Notes: generated by a model not told the origin, from the letters alone. A stretch of 64,000 bases of DNA from Candidatus Colimorpha pelethequi (GCA_018064245.1 JAGHVO010000004.1:42078-106077); one strand, 5' to 3'. Numbered from the stretch's first letter, positions 29,219 through 39,775 are shown. Program-made: numbers and translations.

Positions 29219-29719
29219 TTATTGTAACAAGAAAAACAAACCAGGGTATTGCCGCTTTAAGAAATCTATGCATTCTTTGTTTGGATAGCATAGTTGATTT
29301 CCTACAGAGTGGAATGTTCGACATATATACCCTTGTTTATTCACAGAAAATGTCCATACTTCATCATTCGTATTATATCTATTGCCACAAATAAAATCTA
29401 TCACAATACAAGGTTCAAAGTTCATGTCCGTTCCACATCCCATGGATGAATTAATAAGCAAGACAACACTGTCATAATCCACTTTTGTTATAGAAAACGA
29501 TTGTAAACTGTCAAAAAGAGCATTTATGTAATTTTGTTCCATCGAAAACACGTATGAGGCATAGTGGCTCCTTACATAATCCATATTGTACGTTTGAGTT
29601 TTAATTACGCTTACACGCTCTACGTAGGGGTTTGCAATATAGATTTTTACAGCAGAGAATGATTGCGAAAAACAGATGCTGCAATGGATAACAGCAGCAA
29701 TGATTAATAGCTTCTTCAT
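29219..29719 (-). CDS. hypothetical secreted protein or lipoprotein, AT-rich
   Basis: Signal peptide MKKLLIIAAVIHCSICFSQS (start moved to the internal ATG at 29719). Cys-rich, with no recognisable domain. Confidence 0.6.
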   Translation of the reverse strand: MKKLLIIAAVIHCSICFSQSFSAVKIYIANPYVERVSVIKTQTYNMDYVRSHYASYVFSMEQNYINALFDSLQSFSITKVDYDSVVLLINSSMGCGTDMNFEPCIVIDFICGNRYNTNDEVWTFSVNKQGYICRTFHSVGNQLCYPNKECIDFLKRQYPGLFFLLQ

Positions 29720-29844
29720 ATTTCTTTTATTTTGCGTGATGGAGATCATTGGCTCCGAAATAGGAAAATCCTGTCTCACAGTCGGTTTCCTTGCCGGTAA
29801 ATTTTAGTCTCGAAAACATTTCTCCCCTCCCTTTAGGCCTTTTG

Positions 29845-30525
29845 TCAATCAAACATCAATACATCTTTGAAGTCCCACTCGAAATCAGAATATTCATACA
29901 CAATGGATTCAATGTTTTTTATGTTGTGATGGTCTATCAATAATCTTATCGCTATGGAATAAATTGGTAGCACAGAATAGTGCCTGTTCTTGTGAGAAGA
30001 TTCCGCTATTCTTATTTTTGTAATATTCCAATCCTCAATCATCTTGATTTCTTTATGATTGCTTGGACTTTTCATGTTTTGTTTAAAATAGCGGATGTTT
30101 TTGATGTTCGGGAGATCATCTTTAACCACTTCAAATCCTTCCCCTCGTTTGTTCCATATCAAGTACTGAAAATAGGACCTGTTTGATTCAATATTGGGGA
30201 AACCTATTGTACAGCTCAGGAATAGTGTGTCCGCTCCATCTGGCTTTGACAAGACAGACACTAAAGAGTCAATTAACGCTCGGATCAAAGAGTCTGATAA
30301 TTCGTTCATTAAAATCGTTTTGCGAGAAATGATATTTGCAATATAACCATCAAAAGCATCATCGATGGATTTTTCCAAAGCAGGGACTTCCTCTTTCGCG
30401 ACATAATCGGTGGAAGGAATGGAGGGGGTAACGTCTTTGTAAGAAGCACACCCCGACAAAAACAATAGAATGGAAACCGACAGGGAGAATCTTCCAAGCT
30501 TAAAATTATTATTTCTCATTGACAT
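29845..30525 (-). CDS. hypothetical lipoprotein, AT-rich
   Basis: Signal MSMRNNNFKLGRFSLSVSILLFLSGC with lipobox LSGC. The ORF-track start at 30552 is also possible. Confidence 0.6.
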   Translation of the reverse strand: MSMRNNNFKLGRFSLSVSILLFLSGCASYKDVTPSIPSTDYVAKEEVPALEKSIDDAFDGYIANIISRKTILMNELSDSLIRALIDSLVSVLSKPDGADTLFLSCTIGFPNIESNRSYFQYLIWNKRGEGFEVVKDDLPNIKNIRYFKQNMKSPSNHKEIKMIEDWNITKIRIAESSHKNRHYSVLPIYSIAIRLLIDHHNIKNIESIVYEYSDFEWDFKDVLMFD

Positions 30526-30638
30526 AGTTAAGAAGATTAAGACTAGTTTCATTCATCTTACCATCCCATTGGGACGCTAAAATATTGTTGTATGAGTTTG
30601 AAGCATATTTTTCTCGTTGTTAGCCTAGGTGTCAATTA

Positions 30639-31181
30639 TCAAGGATATTCAAAACCAAACTTCAGTTTGACAAGCTTTCTGTCTTTAATCCAATACTTAA
30701 TAAAATATGCATACTCATTGTTCTCTCGCACATATTCCGAATTAGACTCATCCTCCCAATAACAATATATCCTACATCCATCCTTTTCTTCTATCCAGGT
30801 AGGGTTTCCTTGCTTCTCCACAATATTATCCACCAACTCACCAAGAGAAACATTGTTATTTGTCAAAAATGCCCCATCATAATCATAATACAAGCACGAG
30901 TCTAAGTCAAAAAGATATCCTATCTCGAACACACTCATCACGCCCATAGGATCCCCAGGATAATGTGTCATTCGCAAATATTGTTGTCTCCCCTTATCGA
31001 CCAAGACAATATGACCATTAATAAAATAATTCTCAGCATCTGGAATATTTGCCCCCTCTGAATCCAATAGGCAAAATGAATCTACGCATTTCTCATAATG
31101 TCTTATTATAAGATTGCTATTCTGCGAAAAGCATGATGATATTATAATCGCAAGGAGGAAGTTGCTTAAAAACTTTTTCAT
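30639..31181 (-). CDS. hypothetical lipoprotein, AT-rich
   Basis: Signal MKKFLSNFLLAIIISSC with a lipobox. 180 aa, no recognisable domain. Confidence 0.65.
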   Translation of the reverse strand: MKKFLSNFLLAIIISSCFSQNSNLIIRHYEKCVDSFCLLDSEGANIPDAENYFINGHIVLVDKGRQQYLRMTHYPGDPMGVMSVFEIGYLFDLDSCLYYDYDGAFLTNNNVSLGELVDNIVEKQGNPTWIEEKDGCRIYCYWEDESNSEYVRENNEYAYFIKYWIKDRKLVKLKFGFEYP

Positions 31182-31334: not shown

Positions 31335-34300
31335 TTACGCTATCCAACCATATCCTTGAACTGCCATATCTACAAAATGGTTCATCAGGAGATTGGTCTT
31401 TTCATTGAATGCCACGCGATCATAACTTTCGGGAAGGTCGGTATTGAGGGATAACTGGATAAGTGCAAGCACCTTTTTACGAGGTTGCTCGTCTTTATAC
31501 CAATCCACAACCATGACCTTGTCTTTTTCCTCTATCAGTTTCTTATACAAGTTCTTCGAAGCAAGTATAACCTTCTGCTCTTCAGCCTTGCTCAGTTTCC
31601 TGCCTTGGCAAAGCAAGTCATAGATTTCGAGTTCTTCTTCCTGAAGATCCATTACAGTAGAACGACCTTGCTCACGTTTCATTTCTTCAACGAGCTGCAA
31701 GAGTTTCTCATAATAATCTTCGTTCTCCGTGCCACCCGCATTATACCGGTCAATGATATTCTTGTATCGCTGAGAGAATGCGACACGAGTACAGTTCTTG
31801 TTGATAAGCTGCTCCAAGGTCTTTTCTATGAATTCTCGTAGATTCTCAATCTCCAGAGCTTTGTAAGGTGTAGAGTTTATCTCTTTTCGCAAAGCTTCTA
31901 CATCGAGTTTGCTCAAATCAATGACCTTACCTTGGTGTATGCAATACTCCGATTGGTCCTCAGCCACCATGGCCGTTACACTATCGTCCAGGGTGTAAGC
32001 CATCCTTGCCTTGGCCTTATTGAGTTTCTCATCATCAATCTGATTGCAGAACAAACCATTAAGATAACTAAGGGGCGCAAACTTCTCGTTATACCAATCT
32101 CGCTCAAAGATTTCGGGCTTGCTGGCATCATAAAGATTCATCAGCAAGTTGCTGAGCACTTTGAAGCGGTCTTTCCACTCGTCCTTTTCGAGAATCTTCA
32201 GGTAGGCTGCACGAAGCAAGTCAAGTTGGTCGAGCGTATTGCTTTCTGCAATAATGTTCTCCATGCTGATGCCCAGTTTCAAAAGGAACGCTTCACATTC
32301 CAAGATGCACTCATCAATACTTTGTATAAGTGCTTCAATGTCCTTTGCCGGATATTCTGCATTGTCATCATTAGAAGCATAATCACTCAGAGCCTGTTGC
32401 ATGTATTTGAACACGTTCACATAGTCAACCACAATACCGCAGTTTTTGCCCGGATAAACTCGGTTGGCACGCGCGATGGCTTGCATCAGCGTATGTCCCT
32501 TCATGGGCTTGTCCAGATAGAGCGTTGACAATGAAGGCACGTCGAAGCCAGTAAGCCACATGGCACAGACGAACACAAGACATAGCGAATCGTCCTTATC
32601 CTTGAAGCGGTCTTCTATGTCCTTGCCGTCGGCCGTAATCTCATTCATCTTCTTGCGATGCAGCGTGATGTCAAGTCCCTGATCCTGGAACTTCTCCACC
32701 TCTTCAGCGTCTTCACTGATAACAACAGCCATCTCAACCTTATTCATATAGTTGAGTTGTTCTGTCAGTTTCTCTCGTTCTTCTTTTGTCTTGGCATTAT
32801 TGCGTTCCTTGACGAGAGCCTTCTTTCCCTCTGCCCAGTATTTCTGCACCTTGTCATACATCTTTACGGTAGTGTATTTGTCCACGCTCACCACCATTCC
32901 CTTGCCGAGGAAACCACGACGAGGAAAATGATATGCAATGTCTTGCGCTATCTTTTCCAGACGTTCATCACGCTTGATGACTTCAAGAATGCGAGATGAA
33001 GAGTTCTCCAGAAGTTCTCTTTCGCGGTCATTAAGCTGTTCTTCCTCTACAATGTCCACAATGTCGTCATCGAGGAAATTGTTTTCCAATCCTACTTCCG
33101 GCACTCTTCGACTATAAAACAATGGTACAGTGCTGCCGTCCGCAATAGCCTGAGCAAAGTTATACTCACTCACATAGTCCCCAAACCACTGATTGGTTAG
33201 TCGCTTACTTCCAAGCAAAGGTGTGCCGGTAAATGCAATGTAGTTGGCATTTGGCAGACCTGTGTGCATATTCTCCGCCAACTGCTTGTATTGCGTGCGA
33301 TGAGCTTCATCAACAAGGACAAAGATGTCATCACGTTCGGAAAGGACAGGATATTTCTTTGTCTTGTCATACTGGAACTTATGTATCAGCGTAAACACCA
33401 TGGGTTTGTTGCTACCCAGAAACTCACGCAACTGTACGGCGTTCTTTGGCTGACACTCTTCCTTGTCGCCAATAACCTCTGCCCTCACGAACGTCTTGTG
33501 TATCTGGGTGTCAAGGTCATCACGATCGGTAATGATGAGGAATGTGAAGTTGCCAGGCAGCTTGCGTTTGACCTTCCTTACGAACATCACCATCGAATAA
33601 CTTTTCCCCGAGCCCTGTGTATGCCAGAATACGCCAAGTTTACCATTCAGTTCATCCCTCTTGCCAACACGCTTCATCAAGTTGTTCACGCCAAGGTACT
33701 GGTGATTCTTTGCAATGATCTTGATGCGCTTATTGTCAAAGAAGATAAAGTTTTCAATGTAATCCAGCAAACGTTCCTTTCGGAATAAACCATCAATAAG
33801 ATTTGTTATGCTCAGACCATATTCTGCTATTTTATCACGGTCCAGTTTCTCCTTCTCATCGTCAACACGAAGCCATTCAAAGAAAAACTCATAGCCTGCA
33901 TTCCATGCACCGAGCTTTGTCTGCAAACCATTGCTGAGCACGCATATTTGGTTCAGGGCAAAGATGTTTGGAATATCCTGACGATACGACACGAGGTTCT
34001 TGTTGTACGATTCCTCCACCTTTACCGTAGAGTTCTTCAGTTCTATGAACACCACTGGCAAACCATTCACAAACAGCAGCACATCTGGACGGCGATAACG
34101 GAAATGACCTTTTATCCACATCTGGTTGACGCAATGGAAGTCGTTGTTCTCCACATTGTCGAAGTCGATGATCTTTACAATATCAAAGTCTTCCTTTCCG
34201 TTCTTCTTTACCTTGACCTTGATGCCGTTGCGTATTTGGTTGTAGAACTTATAGTTCGTGTCCACCATATCCGTGCCAGTATAGTCTTTGCGAAAATCTT

Positions 34301-34538
34301 TCACTATGCCAGCCAATGTCTCGGGGTCAATCTGTGGGTTGATGCGTTTCAAGGCATTGAAGAATATCTTTGGCAGAATACACTCCGTCACATTATCACG
34401 ACCAGTCATCGATACATCATCCTGTGCCTCAACGCTCGGGTCACACGCTATGCGTTGCCAACCATATTCTGGTAATGAAAGGCGATTGCAAATTGCTTGT
34501 TCTATATTGTCTTCGCTGATAAATGATTTCATAATCAA
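31335..34538 (-). CDS. hsdR: Type I restriction enzyme R subunit
   Basis: 1067 aa. Nuclease N-terminal region, SF2 helicase motifs (HTQGSGKS, VLVDEAHRTQY, AFTGTPL, QAIARANR) and a helical C-terminal domain. Confidence 0.95.
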   Translation of the reverse strand: MIMKSFISEDNIEQAICNRLSLPEYGWQRIACDPSVEAQDDVSMTGRDNVTECILPKIFFNALKRINPQIDPETLAGIVKDFRKDYTGTDMVDTNYKFYNQIRNGIKVKVKKNGKEDFDIVKIIDFDNVENNDFHCVNQMWIKGHFRYRRPDVLLFVNGLPVVFIELKNSTVKVEESYNKNLVSYRQDIPNIFALNQICVLSNGLQTKLGAWNAGYEFFFEWLRVDDEKEKLDRDKIAEYGLSITNLIDGLFRKERLLDYIENFIFFDNKRIKIIAKNHQYLGVNNLMKRVGKRDELNGKLGVFWHTQGSGKSYSMVMFVRKVKRKLPGNFTFLIITDRDDLDTQIHKTFVRAEVIGDKEECQPKNAVQLREFLGSNKPMVFTLIHKFQYDKTKKYPVLSERDDIFVLVDEAHRTQYKQLAENMHTGLPNANYIAFTGTPLLGSKRLTNQWFGDYVSEYNFAQAIADGSTVPLFYSRRVPEVGLENNFLDDDIVDIVEEEQLNDRERELLENSSSRILEVIKRDERLEKIAQDIAYHFPRRGFLGKGMVVSVDKYTTVKMYDKVQKYWAEGKKALVKERNNAKTKEEREKLTEQLNYMNKVEMAVVISEDAEEVEKFQDQGLDITLHRKKMNEITADGKDIEDRFKDKDDSLCLVFVCAMWLTGFDVPSLSTLYLDKPMKGHTLMQAIARANRVYPGKNCGIVVDYVNVFKYMQQALSDYASNDDNAEYPAKDIEALIQSIDECILECEAFLLKLGISMENIIAESNTLDQLDLLRAAYLKILEKDEWKDRFKVLSNLLMNLYDASKPEIFERDWYNEKFAPLSYLNGLFCNQIDDEKLNKAKARMAYTLDDSVTAMVAEDQSEYCIHQGKVIDLSKLDVEALRKEINSTPYKALEIENLREFIEKTLEQLINKNCTRVAFSQRYKNIIDRYNAGGTENEDYYEKLLQLVEEMKREQGRSTVMDLQEEELEIYDLLCQGRKLSKAEEQKVILASKNLYKKLIEEKDKVMVVDWYKDEQPRKKVLALIQLSLNTDLPESYDRVAFNEKTNLLMNHFVDMAVQGYGWIA

Positions 34539-34559
34539 TTTAGTTTTAGGTTGGTGAGT

Positions 34560-35801
34560 TTATCGAACCATTACTTCAAGTTTGCCACTCATCAAGCGAG
34601 GGAGGAGAAGGTCGCGCTGGCGAGTAAGAAGGGTATTTTGTTTTGCGTAAGAGAATATACTTATCAATAAAGGTTCAATTTCACTATTAAACTCTTTTAT
34701 TATATCCTCATCTGGAATGGTCATTTTTATTCTAAAAATATCTTGCTGACTTAATCCTGGTTGTGCCGCATTCCTATTAAGGTTTTGCATCAAAAGAAAG
34801 TATTCTTTTTGATGTAAGGTAAAATATATATAGTTTTTGTAAGATACGTTATTCGGTGATATAAAGAAAACGTGTTCATTTATAGAATATTCCTTAAATG
34901 GGAAATCATCTCTAAACAAAGTTACTTTTCCAATATATGCACCATCTTTGTATAATAGAATATCGTTGCCTGTATTTTTCCCACGTTTTAATTTACGATA
35001 AAATTCTATAGGAATTAGCTTGACTGAATGATAATCAAATTCTGCAAGATTTTTAATAACCTCTGCACCAAAAGATGGCATGCCTTCTGCTAGACTATCG
35101 TCTACTCCACCCTTAGGCCTTGAGCCTGTTTCTAAACAAATTCCCCAATCACCTAATCTTTCCACCTTCCACCCCTTCGGCAGTCCATTCTCCATTTCCA
35201 CATTCTCGTGTCCTGGGAAACGGAAGCGGACAAACCATTCTTTGTATAGGTTCTCTGCCATCTGCTCTAACAGACGGATGCGTTTGGTGTTGTTCTCTAT
35301 TAGGGTGTCGTAGGTTGAGAGAATGGAGGCTATCTTTTGCTGTATGGGGAGAGGGGGAATTGAGAACTTGATTTTTGCCAGTTTTTCCCAAGATAAATTG
35401 TCTTGGGTAGCACCCAATGCCATTGCTTGGCATCTTTTTTGCAAAATATCAAAAGAATACTTGACAAATCTCACATCAGCCTTGTTTGGATTAGCAATAA
35501 ATCCCATGATGCTATCTGGGAAACAAGCCTTAATTCCAAGAATTGAGGTGTCTGCAATATTCGCTGCAATAGTTATACAAAGAGTTTCTGGATTCCAAAG
35601 TTTGCTCTGTGCAAGTCCCTGTTCATTATATGTTTCTTCGAAATCAGTAAGATGTAACCCAGCTTTCTTAACATCTCCTGTCTGAATGAATGGATAATCT
35701 CCACCAAACAGAGATTCATCATTCCTTGGTCGATGTTTTGAACGCCCACGTGAGACCGACCCCAATTGGTCTAATGTTAGTTTTGGCCATTCCATACTCA
35801 C
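34560..35801 (-). CDS. hsdS: Type I restriction enzyme S (specificity) subunit, two TRDs
   Basis: 413 aa. Has the conserved central and C-terminal helices (PPLPIQQKIASILSTYDTLIENNTKRIRLLEQMAENLYKEWF; TLLTRQRDLLLPRLMSGKLEV). Confidence 0.9.
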   Translation of the reverse strand: MSMEWPKLTLDQLGSVSRGRSKHRPRNDESLFGGDYPFIQTGDVKKAGLHLTDFEETYNEQGLAQSKLWNPETLCITIAANIADTSILGIKACFPDSIMGFIANPNKADVRFVKYSFDILQKRCQAMALGATQDNLSWEKLAKIKFSIPPLPIQQKIASILSTYDTLIENNTKRIRLLEQMAENLYKEWFVRFRFPGHENVEMENGLPKGWKVERLGDWGICLETGSRPKGGVDDSLAEGMPSFGAEVIKNLAEFDYHSVKLIPIEFYRKLKRGKNTGNDILLYKDGAYIGKVTLFRDDFPFKEYSINEHVFFISPNNVSYKNYIYFTLHQKEYFLLMQNLNRNAAQPGLSQQDIFRIKMTIPDEDIIKEFNSEIEPLLISIFSYAKQNTLLTRQRDLLLPRLMSGKLEVMVR

Positions 35802-36730
35802 CCCTCCTTATTATTTATTTCAACATTCGACAATGTATCTTCGTTCCATTTCAATGGATTATTTACAATATATTCGGCAATTCGGCGGTATTCCATTTCA
35901 TTGCGGATGATATGGTCGTGATAATTGGCCTGCCACAATGGATTGTTTTTGTTGAATTTTTGATACACGTTCGTGTGGTTGCCGCATTGGTTGTCACGTC
36001 GTAGAGACGCACGGCCGTGCGTCTCTACGGTGCCGTGCGTTCCAACGGTGTCGTGCGTCCCAATGGTGCCGTGCGTTCCAACGGTGCCGTGCGTTCCAAC
36101 GGTGCCGTGCGTTCCAATGGTGTCGTGCGTTCCAATGGTGCCGTGCGTTCCAACGGTGCCGTGCGTCCCAACGGTGTCGTGCGTCCCAACGGTGTCGTGC
36201 GCCCCAACGGTGCCGTGCGCCCATACGTGGGCGTGCGTCCCCGCGTGGTCATCATCCGCATAACCATCACCCATGTGTTCGCCGTTCATGTTGTCAATCC
36301 AATCATCGATGCGGTTTATCGCAGACGATTTGAATCCTGCCACAAATGACGATATTGATTTTGGTTCGCGTTGTAGAGACGCACGGCCATATTGTAGAGA
36401 CGCACGGCCGTGCGTCTCTACAATACGGCCGTGGTCATCGTTATCCAATATCAAAATGGCGTGTATATGATTTGGCATAATCACATATTCACCCAAATAT
36501 AATTCATCACGCATTTCGAATGATTTCAGGAATTCGGCATTGACGATTTCTCCAATATTGTTCAATATCATTTGTCCATCAACAATTTTTCCAAATATCT
36601 GTTTGCGGTCATTTGTGACAATGGTAATGAAATAACATCCGTTTTGTGCATAATTCCATCCTCTCAATCGGTTTGAGGGAATTCTGTATTTGTTTAGGTA
36701 TCTGTCCGAACCGTTTATATCCATACTCAT
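35798..36730 (-). CDS. RAYT-like / IS200-type Y1 HUH protein with in-frame repeat insertions
   Basis: HUH motif in YVIMPNHIHAILIL and Tyr motif in LWQANYHDHIIRNE. ATGA overlaps with both neighbouring genes. (GTHGTV)n and ETHGRASLQ segments lie between the two motifs. Confidence 0.8.
   Translation of the reverse strand: MSMDINGSDRYLNKYRIPSNRLRGWNYAQNGCYFITIVTNDRKQIFGKIVDGQMILNNIGEIVNAEFLKSFEMRDELYLGEYVIMPNHIHAILILDNDDHGRIVETHGRASLQYGRASLQREPKSISSFVAGFKSSAINRIDDWIDNMNGEHMGDGYADDDHAGTHAHVWAHGTVGAHDTVGTHDTVGTHGTVGTHGTIGTHDTIGTHGTVGTHGTVGTHGTIGTHDTVGTHGTVETHGRASLRRDNQCGNHTNVYQKFNKNNPLWQANYHDHIIRNEMEYRRIAEYIVNNPLKWNEDTLSNVEINNKEG
36001..36028. repeat. perfect 28-bp palindrome GTAGAGACGCACGG|CCGTGCGTCTCTAC (REP-like) inside the RAYT-like ORF
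   Basis: Self-complementary, read directly. Confidence 0.9.
36029..36247. repeat. 18-bp tandem array (about 12 units of GGTGCCGTGCGTTCCAAC-like) inside the RAYT-like ORF
   Basis: Period-18 repeats with point variants. Each unit contains CCGTGCGT, which is the right arm of the adjacent palindrome. Confidence 0.9.
36371..36424. repeat. half copy plus perfect 34-bp palindrome ATTGTAGAGACGCACGG|CCGTGCGTCTCTACAAT inside the RAYT-like ORF
   Basis: TTGTAGAGACGCACGGCC at 36371-36388, then the full palindrome at 36391-36424. Confidence 0.9.
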
Positions 36731-37836
36731 TCTTCCTTTCCATTTAGTTCGTTATATTCCTCAATCCACTCACGCAGTTTCTGCTGCAGCAAAGCCTTGT
36801 CGGGCAAGCAGAGGGCGTACTGCTGGGCGTAGATGTTGGCATCTTGTGGTAGCGTCAACTCTACGAGGGCGTCATTCTTGCTCGGGCAAAGCAAGATACC
36901 TATGGTAGGTTTCTCAAACTCCAATCGCTTGTATCGGTCGAAATAGTTCACATACATGAGCATCTGACCAAGATCCTGATGTGACAACTTATCTACCTTC
37001 AAGTCAACGAGTACGTAGCATTGCAGGATGCGATTGTAAAGCACAAGGTCGACATAGAAATTGTCCTCATCGAAAGTGAACCGTTTCTGGCGCCCCTCAA
37101 ACAGGAACCCCTTGCCACACTCCAGAAGGAAATCCTCTATCTTGTCGAGAATTGCTGTTTCAAGTTTATTTTCAGTATATGCAGCTTCTGGTTTCAAACC
37201 CACAAACTCAAGCACCAAAGGATTCTTGATGATGTCGGATGGTTTTTCGATGGTCTGACCTTCGGTCGCGAGTCGCATCACCTCAGCCTTATCTCGACTC
37301 AGAGCCAGACGTTCGTAAAGACTGCTGCTAACTTGCCGTTGCAGTTGCCGTTTACTCCATTGTTGATTATATGCCTCTAGCTCATAGAAACTACGAGCAT
37401 CAGGATTATCTTCTCGCATTATGATTTGATAATGTGTCCAAGGCAATATGAATGAAGGATTTGCTGACCGCTGGTCATCATTTTGATTTTGCTGACCACT
37501 GGTTAGCATTTTAGAATACACCATATAAAACTGGCGCATACTACGCAAGTTAGCATACGACCATCCTGCTCCATACTTCTCCGTCAGTCTTGCTGATAGT
37601 CGCTTCAACACGCCCTTGCCATACTCTGCCCGGGAATTACCCCCCTGCTCAAACTCCACTATATACTGCCCCACGCCATAGTAGGTATAAACCATTGCGC
37701 TGTTCACGGTCTTTGCTATTTGCGTGCGGCTCTCATCAATGAGATTGGCAATGTGATCAAACAGAGTGTCTTCAGAAACTATCGCCGAATTCAACTTTCC
37801 GATGTCTTTATTTTCCTTCATGGTTTTATTCTCCAA
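36727..37836 (-). CDS. DUF1016/YhcG-family PD-(D/E)XK nuclease domain protein
   Basis: 369 aa. The N-terminal region ...TVNSAMVYTYYGVGQYIVEFEQGG..RAEYGKGVLKRLS..L and the C-terminal YVDLVLYN....CYVLVDLKVDKL nuclease core are typical of YhcG. Confidence 0.8.
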   Translation of the reverse strand: MENKTMKENKDIGKLNSAIVSEDTLFDHIANLIDESRTQIAKTVNSAMVYTYYGVGQYIVEFEQGGNSRAEYGKGVLKRLSARLTEKYGAGWSYANLRSMRQFYMVYSKMLTSGQQNQNDDQRSANPSFILPWTHYQIIMREDNPDARSFYELEAYNQQWSKRQLQRQVSSSLYERLALSRDKAEVMRLATEGQTIEKPSDIIKNPLVLEFVGLKPEAAYTENKLETAILDKIEDFLLECGKGFLFEGRQKRFTFDEDNFYVDLVLYNRILQCYVLVDLKVDKLSHQDLGQMLMYVNYFDRYKRLEFEKPTIGILLCPSKNDALVELTLPQDANIYAQQYALCLPDKALLQQKLREWIEEYNELNGKEE

Positions 37837-39529
37837 ACAATTCTTTCAAGTTCTTTTCAATCTCACTCTCCAATGTCTTCGCCTCGTTGGAGAGGGCAGA
37901 GAACTCACTATTGAGGTTGAGTATTTCGGCACGGAACTCTTCTTCCGTCATTCCATCATCCTCAATCACCACGCCCACATAGCGGCCAGCATTGAGGCTG
38001 TAGTCGTTGTCGATGATGCCATCCTCGCCATCCAGTTTGGCAACTTTGCACAATCCTATCACATCCTGGTATTTGCCATCGGGCCAACGCTTCAGAAGCC
38101 AATCTATCTGCGCTTGCCAGTAGTTATCGTTTTCGTTATCGTTGAGACGAGTCTTGTACTCGTCGATCAATGCCCAGAATGCATCGCTGTCACCCTCATA
38201 GAGGCGGCTGATGATGCCAAGGTTCTTGATCTGCTCGTCAGAGAATTTGCGATGAGCCCTATCTACCTGTGTGAAGATATTGCGAGCATCAATGAAGAGA
38301 ATCTCATCACGCTTGGTTCTTTGCTTGTTGAAGAACCAAAGTGTGGCAGGGAGCGTAACAGTTGAGAACATATTGCTTGGGAGCGTCACCATCTGACTGA
38401 TGATGCCATCCTCTATCATCTTCTTACGTATCTCCAGTTCTGAGCCACCAGCATCGCTTGCAGAGTTCGCCATTACAAGTGCCGCCTTGCCATTGTCATT
38501 AAGTGCTGTAGCGAAATAGCCAATCCACAAATAGTTGGCATTAGGTACGGTTTCCTTCTTGTCTCCCGATTTTTTGCCAGAGTTTGTCTTGTTGCGAGGC
38601 ACTCCGTAGGTATTGAAACGGGCATCGCCAACCACTTTCTCCACAACCACCTCATCGACATTAAACGGCGGATTTGCCATCACATAGTCGAACTGACCGA
38701 ATGCACTATATGGGTCGCTATAGAAGGAGTTCGCTTCTGTAATCTCACCACGTATATTGTTAAGCAAAAGGTTCATCTTTGCCAACTTCACGGTGTCGGG
38801 TTCCTTCTCCACACCATAGCAACGGAAATGCATCATTTCGTCGTTTGTTGCATTATGACGATGCATGTAGCGAGCCGCCTGTACGAACATACCGCCCGAA
38901 CCGCAAGCTGGGTCAAGGAATTTCTTGTCACCAGTTGTTGGCTGAAGCACTTCTACCATATATTGTACTACGCTGGCAGGAGTATAGAATGCTCCACCAC
39001 CCTGACCTTCAGCAAGAGCAAAGTTGCCAAGGAAGTACTCATAAATCTGACCAAAGATGTCAATACTGATGTCTTCCGGAATATCTTTGAACACTCGAAC
39101 AATACGACTCAAAAGTTCTGGTTCCTCTTCGGGAACCAACTGACCATACACTTCCTTTGGCAACACACCTTCCATTCGTGGATTCTCACGTTCGATGGCT
39201 TCCATGGCACGCTTCACGAGCAATGCTTTGTTGGCATCGTCTGGAGCATCGTTCAGGTAGTCAAAGTAGGCACATTCTGGAAGGTAGAAACCGCATTTCT
39301 CTACTGCAACATCTTTGTATTCCTTCTCCATACGAGTACCCTTATACTGATTGTACTCAGCATCAATCTCTTCTTTGTGCTGTTTGAAAAGCACATCCGC
39401 ATAACGAAGGAAGATTAAGCCAAGGATTGGCTGCCCGTACTTGTTGGCTGCCAAGTGGGCACCTGCACGAAGCATATCTGCCGAGTGCCAGAGGTTATCT
39501 TTAAGTGTTTTGAGTTCTATGTCTGTCAT
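37826..39529 (-). CDS. hsdM: Type I restriction-modification N6-adenine DNA methyltransferase subunit
   Basis: 567 aa. HsdM N-terminal domain, SAM motif LDPACGSGGMF and catalytic NPPF. Confidence 0.95.
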   Translation of the reverse strand: MTDIELKTLKDNLWHSADMLRAGAHLAANKYGQPILGLIFLRYADVLFKQHKEEIDAEYNQYKGTRMEKEYKDVAVEKCGFYLPECAYFDYLNDAPDDANKALLVKRAMEAIERENPRMEGVLPKEVYGQLVPEEEPELLSRIVRVFKDIPEDISIDIFGQIYEYFLGNFALAEGQGGGAFYTPASVVQYMVEVLQPTTGDKKFLDPACGSGGMFVQAARYMHRHNATNDEMMHFRCYGVEKEPDTVKLAKMNLLLNNIRGEITEANSFYSDPYSAFGQFDYVMANPPFNVDEVVVEKVVGDARFNTYGVPRNKTNSGKKSGDKKETVPNANYLWIGYFATALNDNGKAALVMANSASDAGGSELEIRKKMIEDGIISQMVTLPSNMFSTVTLPATLWFFNKQRTKRDEILFIDARNIFTQVDRAHRKFSDEQIKNLGIISRLYEGDSDAFWALIDEYKTRLNDNENDNYWQAQIDWLLKRWPDGKYQDVIGLCKVAKLDGEDGIIDNDYSLNAGRYVGVVIEDDGMTEEEFRAEILNLNSEFSALSNEAKTLESEIEKNLKELFGE

Positions 39530-39536
39530 AGGTGTA

Positions 39537-39740
39537 TTACATTTGGGTGTCGTTAAGGAGATATTTCACATCAACTTCAAGAAGTTTTGCTATCTTGTCT
39601 AAAGTCTGCAAGTCTGGTTGAATACTGTTACTGCACCACTTGCTAACGGTGCATGGTGTTTTGCCAATCTCTTCTGCTAGCCACTTGCCGGTTTTACCCT
39701 TTTCTACAAGGACAACCTTGATTCTATTTAGATTTGCCAT
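39537..39740 (-). CDS. XRE-family helix-turn-helix transcriptional regulator (candidate controller of the hsd operon)
   Basis: MANLNRIKVVLVEKGKTGKWLAEEIGKTPCTVSKWCSN. It sits 7 nt upstream of hsdM. The ATG at 39740 fits the -7 box at 39768-39775. Confidence 0.8.
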   Translation of the reverse strand: MANLNRIKVVLVEKGKTGKWLAEEIGKTPCTVSKWCSNSIQPDLQTLDKIAKLLEVDVKYLLNDTQM

Positions 39741-39767
39741 ATTGGTATAATTGATTATAATTTGATG

Positions 39768-39775
39768 CAAAGGTA
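39768..39775 (-). promoter_or_regulatory. candidate -7 promoter box (TACCTTTG) for the HTH-hsd operon
   Basis: Plus-strand CAAAGGTA lies 28 nt upstream of the ATG at 39740. Confidence 0.45.

Follow-up and report, generated by a model that had tools for sequence, protein, structure and literature searches.

A RAYT gene and a DUF1016 nuclease gene as probable exchangeable cargo of a widespread Bacteroidales type I restriction-modification operon

Do the genes that sit inside a restriction-modification (R-M) operon work with it, or do they only travel with it? The question is raised by a locus of Candidatus Colimorpha pelethequi, found in a stretch of 64,000 nucleotides (GCA_018064245.1, JAGHVO010000004.1:42078-106077; this whole stretch is called the window here, and positions are counted from its first letter). 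At positions 31335-39775, on the minus strand, six co-directional open reading frames (ORFs) follow each other in the order helix-turn-helix (HTH) gene, hsdM, DUF1016/YhcG, RAYT-like, hsdS, hsdR, a type I R-M operon with two additional genes between the methylase and specificity genes. This gene order and these identities, proposed in a first-pass annotation of the sequence, are borne out by the ORF calls and by Pfam, NCBIfam and PADLOC matches. The answer that we favor, with a probability of about 0.6, is that a widespread type I R-M operon carries cargo in slots at its internal junctions, that the RAYT gene was inserted into one of these slots later, and that the DUF1016 protein is an accessory nuclease and the RAYT a domesticated or semi-selfish element. 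The locus clearly illustrates cargo slots at work in type I R-M operons, which are now mined for defence genes via 'guilt-by-embedding': one backbone is found with at least six cargo states, and one insertion is represented by an exact pair of an empty and a filled site. What is seen for DUF1016 brings little that is new, since this family is already listed as a defence candidate. Of more use are the results on the RAYT, with RAYT genes found in R-M operons in about one third of the species surveyed, with their active-site residues intact and with signs of purifying selection, in a family that has been filtered out of defence screens because it is filed under "transposase."

The RAYT-like gene (35798..36730, minus strand, 310 aa; the native start is probably the ATG at 36724) gives a weak match to Y1_Tnp, and it scores 77.2 bits against NCBIfam NF047646 (REP_Tyr_transpos), below the cut-off of 80, a near miss explained by a repeat insert that splits the match into two stretches. 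Its motifs PNHIHAI, LWQANYHDH, and EYIVNNP are those of TnpA_REP subclass 2.4, the HuH motif NH[IFV]H, the WQ motif, and the Tyr motif YIxNNP, respectively. An alignment of the family profile with E. coli TnpA_REP 4er8 covers both the HuH and the Tyr motifs, with Y287 opposite a position that we take to be the catalytic Tyr115, and H88, H90, and Y287 are invariant in the RAYT alignment. The dN/dS values versus relatives, of 0.17-0.26, indicate that the gene is under purifying selection. Two copies of an in-frame 'double-foot' repetitive extragenic palindrome (REP), GTAGAGACGCACGGCCGTGCGTCTCTAC, are located in the ORF (36394..36421 and 36001..36028), and these are the only two in the 64-kb window, none being found outside the RAYT ORF. 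The palindrome is also inside the ORF in 65 of the 80 RAYT relatives that were surveyed, with compensatory stem variants. Between the HuH and the Tyr motifs, Tandem Repeats Finder detects an 18-nt tandem array of 12.7 copies (36014..36241), in frame and encoding (G/A)TH(G/D)T(V/I) repeats. Close homologues (P0002-P0025) vary by whole repeat units, their lengths running from 223 to 258 aa in 5-aa steps with a varying number of GNVGG-type repeats, and the array therefore seems to be hypervariable through slippage. As both the in-ORF palindromes and the array match the published hallmarks of subclass 2.4, a variable insert between HuH and Tyr and in-frame 'double-foot' REPs of the form GT[AG]G...C[TC]AC, in Bacteroidetes (PMC6006769), they are ordinary for the subclass. 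The window protein shares with TnpA_REP subclass 2.4, also known as Bertels RAYT group 4 (Quentin et al., 2018; PMC6006769; reference PDB 4ER8), the NHIH, WQ, and YIVNNP motifs and the in-frame GTAG...CTAC REPs, and it differs from the subclass in possessing, within the 64-kb window, neither flanking REPs nor intergenic DNA and in being coupled inside a type I R-M operon. By its sequence, then, the RAYT-like gene belongs to subclass 2.4, a known type of enzyme. Members of the subclass still have dispersed REPs in some genomes, as exemplified by a metagenome-assembled genome of the Deltaproteobacteria (L057:1-20597), in which seven copies of the palindrome AGAGACGCACGGCCGTGCGTCTCT are spread over 20 kb beyond the RAYT gene itself. 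Four other loci that had appeared to be hairpin-rich (L007, L025, L056, and L072) turned out to be artefacts of masked N runs.

How often are such genes found in R-M operons? The RAYT survey included 80 loci, one genome per species, these being the best-scoring 80 of at least 427 relatives, from hosts in Bacteroidota, Planctomycetota, Spirochaetota, and others. Type I R-M genes, recognized with iterated HsdM, HsdS, and HsdR profiles (tblastn with the window Hsd proteins under-counted them, at 23 loci versus 27), are present at 27 of these 80 loci, and the remaining 53, which add up to 770 kb, contain no hsd gene. All of the 27 R-M-embedded RAYTs are co-directional with the hsd genes, and they are always located between these genes or abutting them, at a distance of 63 nt or less in 21 cases and with an overlap in nine, and translational coupling is the usual state. 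The only direct neighbors of the RAYT genes that recur in the Pfam tallies are Methylase_S upstream (15/65) and HsdR domains downstream (7/60). Compared with an assumed background of about 1.4%, derived from about two hsd loci per genome, the binomial probability of such embedding is about 7e-30. Our literature searches found no paper that connects RAYTs or HUH enzymes with hsd operons, and the words 'restriction' and 'hsd' have 0 occurrences each in the paper that defines the subclass (PMC6006769). The type I R-M operon is thus an unreported but recurrent habitat of RAYT genes, occupied far above chance.

The possibility that the R-M-embedded RAYTs form one clade was ruled out, as 17 state changes were counted on the tree versus 17.6 in shuffles, on a poorly resolved tree in which 39 of the 65 inner branches are open. 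With the R-M state scattered over the RAYT tree, the association must have been gained and lost many times. The clade next-closest to the window RAYT is found alone, in a conserved housekeeping site. A phage-borne origin of the RAYT appears unlikely, as none of the subclass 2.4 genes was confirmed among the 2.9 million contigs of IMG/VR.

The second line of evidence comes from the hsd backbone. Homologues that share 85-97% identity with HsdM of the window number in the thousands among Bacteroidales assemblies, and an exact-sequence look-up of the window HsdM found no match on record. With M, S, and R standing for hsdM, hsdS, and hsdR, the window reads HTH-M-DUF1016-RAYT-S-R, and the related loci present a series of alternatives. 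In L161 (HsdM 97% identical) the order is HTH-M, followed by the end of the contig, with the same PRK/aroK flank as in the window. One alternative is HTH-M-S-(HAD-like)-R, in L163 (91%), and another is M-DUF1016-S-(23S_rRNA_IVP-like)-R, in L162 (90%). L164 and L165 (89%) possess M-(125-aa DUF1016_N remnant)-S-Fic-R, L172 (90%) possesses M-(74 aa)-S-R, and six loci, L166-L171 (87-88%), present the simple M-S-R. Finally, L173 (91%) encodes M-RAYT-S, with a RAYT 83% identical to that of the window. As cargo varies in this way among related backbones, the M|S and S|R junctions behave as cargo slots, with contents that change more quickly than the hsd genes diverge, and, as each of the two window cargo genes is found without the other, DUF1016 and RAYT represent independent cassettes. 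The hsdS genes of the window and L162 are near-identical in the central and C-terminal conserved regions, and their target recognition domains (TRDs) differ.

In more distant relatives the M|S and S|R slots are filled with recognized defence-type genes, as in M-Fic-DUF1016-S-x-AbiH-x-RAYT-Fic_C-RhuM-R (L011), M-Fic-x-Fic-DUF1016-S-KAP-RAYT-R (L005), and M-DUF1016-TIR-HEPN-x-S-SMODS-x-R (L131). The last of these, L131:2297-13063, is a type I R-M operon with at least six embedded genes, including, besides DUF1016, those for TIR, a HEPN/NTase-substrate-binding pair, and a SMODS cyclase. Judged by these comparisons, the backbone is that of a type I R-M operon that is horizontally widespread in Bacteroidales, and its architecture, with a regulator in the lead and embedded cargo, is a known one. 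The two window cargo genes appear to be dispensable for the R-M system, as near-identical hsd backbones possess neither DUF1016 nor RAYT, or possess a decayed DUF1016. The DUF1016_N-only remnant of 125 aa, at the hsdM/hsdS junction of L164 (L164:9770-10147), on a backbone 89% identical, demonstrates that DUF1016 cargo can decay.

Such variability would suit a scenario in which both passengers are pure hitch-hikers in a 'genomic sink', that is, in insertion-tolerant and often transferred R-M operons that gather functionless genes. The cargo is indeed very diverse and variable, a DUF1016 remnant is decaying in L164, and the genomic-sink idea has been discussed by others (Payne et al., 2024; 10.1101/2024.01.29.577857). 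However, both window ORFs are intact, with conserved active sites, the RAYT appears to be under purifying selection, translational coupling is precisely kept, and the enrichment at the family level is far above any plausible random rate. We therefore consider an entirely functionless status of the two genes doubtful.

How the RAYT cassette entered the operon can be read from its ends. The 10-mer TGAGTATGGA, consisting of a stop codon, GT, and ATGGA, occurs twice in the 64-kb window, solely at the cassette ends. The left copy (36720..36729, minus strand) includes the DUF1016 stop, GT, and the RAYT ATG, and the right copy (35791..35800, minus strand) includes the RAYT stop, GT, and the hsdS ATG. 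Over 31 nt around the two copies, 24 of the 31 positions match, as counted by eye. The empty site is represented by L162, in which DUF1016 is directly followed by hsdS, the sequence there being GGAGGAATAAGTATGGATTGG, with a single copy of TGAGTATGGA. In a second operon with RAYT in the M|S slot, at L173:2432-2492, a mini-ORF, MEKIYNNLKELFG followed by a stop codon, is located after the RAYT stop and just before the hsdS start, and it duplicates the C-terminus of HsdM (...NLKELFGE, at the stop). This mini-ORF resembles a scar left when a cassette was inserted between hsdM and hsdS. As RAYT cassettes enter at the coupling junction and duplicate it, downstream translational coupling would stay intact. 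We infer from these junctions both the insertion event and its likely mechanism, either illegitimate or microhomology recombination or an enzyme-driven step.

Another proposal is that the RAYT acts on the operon itself, in an integron-like fashion, through gain, loss, or exchange of cassettes or through diversification of hsdS at the coupling junctions, with single-strand hairpins or junction sequences as the recombination sites. Turnover in the cargo slots of the backbone outpaces that of the hsd genes, a duplicated junction sequence flanks RAYT cassettes in two independent operons, and an R-M-embedded RAYT is always inside the operon, beside hsdS, all of which this proposal would accommodate. 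The adjacency to hsdS is, however, uninformative, because in an M-S-R operon either of the internal slots adjoins hsdS. Moreover, operons without RAYT vary in cargo too, no REP hairpin is found at any of the junctions, the palindrome being confined to the RAYT ORF in the window, and the known Y1 transposases, of the IS200/IS605 type, insert without target duplication. Such a role for the enzyme thus seems very unlikely to us.

The scenario that best accommodates the survey, the backbone comparisons, and the junctions is the one given at the outset. Transcription of the operon would start from one promoter upstream of the small XRE-type HTH gene, whose product would be a probable autoregulator. 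The tightly coupled M|S and S|R junctions serve as cargo slots, the M|S slot of the window holding two independent cassettes. The first of these supplies a DUF1016/YhcG protein, in which a helical domain at the N-terminus is joined to a NucS-like PD-(D/E)XK domain whose active-site residues are intact, and which belongs to a family habitually encoded between a gene for a DNA methylase and either hsdS or res. The second supplies a TnpA_REP 2.4 RAYT, a predicted HUH/Tyr nuclease of single-strand DNA hairpins whose gene carries its own REP hairpins in frame. This second cassette would have been inserted later, exactly at the DUF1016|hsdS junction, duplicating stop-GT-ATGGA and so preserving the coupling, and both cargo genes would ride the operon promoter and the horizontal mobility of the operon. 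The RAYT is then, most likely, an element that is domesticated or semi-selfish and that finds in R-M operons a preferred safe harbor. If the association should prove to be purely selfish, R-M operons would be seen to act as safe harbors for domesticated transposases.

A number of points weigh against this scenario. As to the junction repeat, beyond the stop and start codons the perfect 10-mer adds only about four informative bases, and the longer, 31-nt repeat is imperfect. As to the survey, the 1.4% background was estimated from the numbers of hsd genes given in the literature and is not a matched control, and the 80 loci score highest among at least 427 relatives, so that the fraction may not hold subclass-wide. 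As to the interpretation, the 34% embedding rate of the RAYTs is no lower than that of accepted embedded defence genes, which by 'guilt-by-embedding' would argue for a function tied to R-M over hitch-hiking.

The last of these points leads to an alternative in which the subclass 2.4 RAYTs are functional partners of type I R-M systems, either as nucleases of single-stranded DNA (ssDNA) hairpins acting against ssDNA invaders or as recombinases shuffling cargo or hsdS cassettes. In its nuclease version the targets could conceivably be conjugative plasmids, microviruses, and rolling-circle replicons, which are beyond HsdR restriction. If true, such a partnership would account for the translational coupling of a third of the family to hsd genes, inside their operons, in several phyla, and it would mean that the family has escaped defence-discovery pipelines because these reject 'transposases' a priori. 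We rate such a partnership as rather unlikely.

The other cargo gene, DUF1016/YhcG (36727..37821, minus strand, 364 aa from the ATG), is the same as PADLOC PDC-S02 (E 5e-134). Its product matches DUF1016_N (PF17761; 138.2 bits versus a cut-off of 32.8, E 2e-40) and YhcG_C (PF06250; 160.9 bits versus a cut-off of 32.5, E 3e-47), and it is 97% identical to the cargo of L162. The E-D-(D/E)xK motif is maintained, with E234, D258, and K275 invariant and D273 conserved at 90% or more in 59 sequences. An AlphaFold model of the protein (pLDDT 76, pTM 0.50) finds its best structural matches, for the C-terminal PD-(D/E)XK domain, in NucS/EndoMS (2vld, 5gke; about 108 residues, TM 0.21-0.32), and no structural match for the helical N-terminal domain. 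The likeness to NucS/EndoMS thus concerns the C-terminal domain only, and the window locus has no mismatch-repair context. The match is consistent with the DUF91 relationship proposed in 2005, and the catalytic motif is as described in the same work.

The DUF1016 survey included 80 metagenome loci, in which near-duplicates were collapsed at 85% identity, to 62 clusters. Directly upstream of DUF1016, an HsdM-type methylase is found in 13 of the 51 de-replicated loci and an N6_N4 (Type III) methylase in five, and directly downstream HsdS is found in 10/49 and ResIII in 6/49. The first-pass annotation had called for a survey of the gene neighborhoods of the two cargo families, and for both of them the association turns out to be non-random, with a methylase upstream of DUF1016 in 18/51 loci and RAYT in type I operons in 27/80. 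The closest DUF1016 relatives (about 65% identity, from the human gut) are encoded in HTH-hsdR-hsdM-DUF1016-hsdS operons. DUF1016 is also present on 39 viral contigs of IMG/VR, and 11 of these 39 loci are within type I R-M operons. Two DUF1016-containing type I loci from the same database, L181:5399-9496 and L211:7085-10192, possess several copies of hsdS in alternating orientation, a layout that fits invertible hsdS shufflons and, with them, the published enrichment of DUF1016 near programmed inversions. The pair of RAYT and DUF1016 recurs outside type I R-M, as both are embedded in a different modification-type system in L110:794-9782, composed of genes for a SNF2-family helicase, DUF4391, a hypothetical protein, RAYT, an N6_N4 methylase, and DUF1016.

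The idea of a defence role for DUF1016 is not new. The co-occurrence of DUF1016 and R-M genes was tabulated in 2012, its enrichment beside invertible hsdS genes was reported in 2023, and the embedding logic followed here was published by Payne et al. (2024), who proposed PDC-S02 as a defence candidate via 'guilt-by-embedding' (bioRxiv 10.1101/2024.01.29.577857). The PDC candidates were drawn from genes found inside BREX, DISARM, and type I R-M systems, and mobility proteins were excluded beforehand (10.1101/2024.01.29.577857). The DUF1016 protein of the window has the same two domains and its gene the same placement between hsdM and hsdS as PDC-S02, and nothing structural differs. Of eight candidates, four gave protection against T4, T5, or T7, and a PDC-S02 representative, expressed alone in E. 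coli B, did not belong to these four. Most likely, DUF1016 is an R-M-linked accessory nuclease that needs the R-M context for its role.

A more specific role, in the manner of PrrC, would be that of a back-up, with the passengers held inactive by HsdM/HsdS/HsdR and released when an anti-restriction protein of a phage or plasmid (Ocr, ArdA, Stp-like) disables the complex, to cut DNA, the PD-(D/E)XK nuclease cutting dsDNA and the HUH enzyme ssDNA. Both the DUF1016 and the RAYT families are strongly, recurrently, and co-directionally embedded in R-M operons, catalytic residues are intact in both passengers, the slots of relatives hold abortive-infection and other defence cargo (AbiH, Fic, RhuM, KAP, TIR, SMODS), and there is an established precedent in PrrC, as well as an established 'guardian' concept. 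The window passengers share with the PrrC-type guardian the embedding in a type I R-M operon, but scans with Pfam, PADLOC, and NCBIfam detected neither the ABC-ATPase sensor nor the anticodon-nuclease domain in either of them, and in the Pfam scan no sensor or ATPase domain of any kind was seen. Near-identical backbones lack the cargo or possess it in decayed form, and about two thirds of the RAYT relatives, including the next-closest clade, in its housekeeping site, are outside any R-M locus. The lack of protection by the PDC-S02 representative also speaks against such a role, yet the representative acted alone and a guardian would need its R-M partner. Nothing observed links either passenger to sensing of the R-M complex, and on balance we consider the idea improbable. 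The precedent itself needs a correction, as the first-pass annotation had cited PrrC as a passenger between hsdM and hsdS, and its place in the prr locus is between hsdS and hsdR.

Among the characterized systems, the closest example of a regulator-led operon with embedded cargo is the RptR-hsdM-hsdS-darT-darG-hsdR island of enteropathogenic E. coli (EPEC), in which the same elements are found, a small leader regulator, co-directional hsd genes, and a two-gene cargo wedged between hsd genes. The slot of the RptR-Hsd-DarTG island has been described as a recombination hotspot (Zhang et al., 2025; PMC12255303). The cargo differs, as the window operon encodes a PD-(D/E)XK nuclease and an HUH nuclease in place of the anticodon nuclease of EcoprrI/PrrC or the toxin-antitoxin pair of DarTG. 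The leader differs as well, as the small regulator that comes first in the window is of the XRE family and has no detectable similarity to RptR. Homology of the two was ruled out, since no RptR chain is present among the PDB matches at E up to 1, and none of TAGCTA, TAGATA, TATCTA, and TATATA was seen by eye in the promoter sequence.

The leader gene (39537..39740, minus strand) encodes an XRE-family HTH protein of 67 aa (Pfam HTH_3, E 4e-9), whose best PDB match is the XRE protein 3bs3 (E 4.5e-19), a probable autoregulator of the operon. The same gene leads the related operons L161 and L163, and homologues at 41-57% identity lead the HTH-hsdR-hsdM-DUF1016-hsdS loci. Upstream of it, 28 nt from its start codon, is a Bacteroidota-type -7 promoter box, TACCTTTG (39768..39775, minus strand). 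The first-pass annotation had reported one TAnnTTTG box upstream, and the box is real, but it is not the sole copy, as three more are present on the same strand inside the operon, at 33155, 34917, and 36494. The motif is not enriched in the 64-kb window (45 matches versus 38.6 expected), and it is the position of TACCTTTG, invariant across six aligned HTH-led promoters, that supports its status as a promoter. Between this box and the HTH start, the inverted repeat TATAAT-CA-ATTATA (39746..39759, minus strand), partly maintained in L161 and L163, is a candidate operator, a role that we infer only. Inside the operon no terminator-like sites above chance were found, and no internal sigma-70 promoters above chance, in a scan whose model is not of the Bacteroidota type.

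Of the hsd genes themselves, hsdM (37826..39529, minus strand) encodes a type I methyltransferase subunit with the expected domains N6_Mtase (PF02384, E 9e-75) and HsdM_N (PF12161, E 2e-17), matching PADLOC MTase_I at E 5e-180. hsdS (34560..35795, with an alternative start at 35801, minus strand) encodes a specificity subunit with two TRDs, Methylase_S (PF01420) being matched in two stretches and PADLOC Specificity_I at E 3e-96. hsdR (31335..34532, with an alternative start at 34538, minus strand) encodes a restriction/translocase subunit with HSDR_N, SWI2_SNF2, T1R_D3-like, and T1RH-like_C domains, and thus both a nuclease and an SF2 translocase, and it matches TIGR00348 with 489.7 bits (cut-off 284.55, E 1.5e-146).

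Most of the junctions are as they had originally been described. The gap between HTH and hsdM is 7 nt, as read from the sequence, and DUF1016 and RAYT overlap by ATGA. Between hsdM and DUF1016 there is an 11-nt overlap from the TTG start (37836) and a 4-nt gap from the second Met (ATG 37821), and it is the latter that matches the start of the 97%-identical L162 homologue. The overlap of RAYT and hsdS had been given as ATGA, and it reads GTGA instead; a 2-nt gap to the hsdS ATG at 35795 is probably the correct reading, as this start is used in the L162 homologue. The 21-nt gap between hsdS and hsdR holds for the TTG start of hsdR, and it is 27 nt for the ATG at 34532, which is probably the start in use. 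A Shine-Dalgarno-like AAGGAGG is located 8-9 nt 5' of the hsdS start, whichever gene precedes it (35791-35815 in the window; L162:5425-5450). A strong Shine-Dalgarno sequence before hsdS is unusual for Bacteroidota, in which initiation is mostly not led by such sequences, and it would fit either a horizontal origin or selection for translational coupling.

Downstream of hsdR, at 29219-31181 of the window, are three AT-rich ORFs without a Pfam match. Together with the R-M operon, these form a stretch of lower G+C content, about 0.34-0.49 versus about 0.50-0.52 just outside. No tRNA genes were found near this stretch, and it is bounded by an LRR_5 (BspA-type) gene and by a PRK-family kinase gene.

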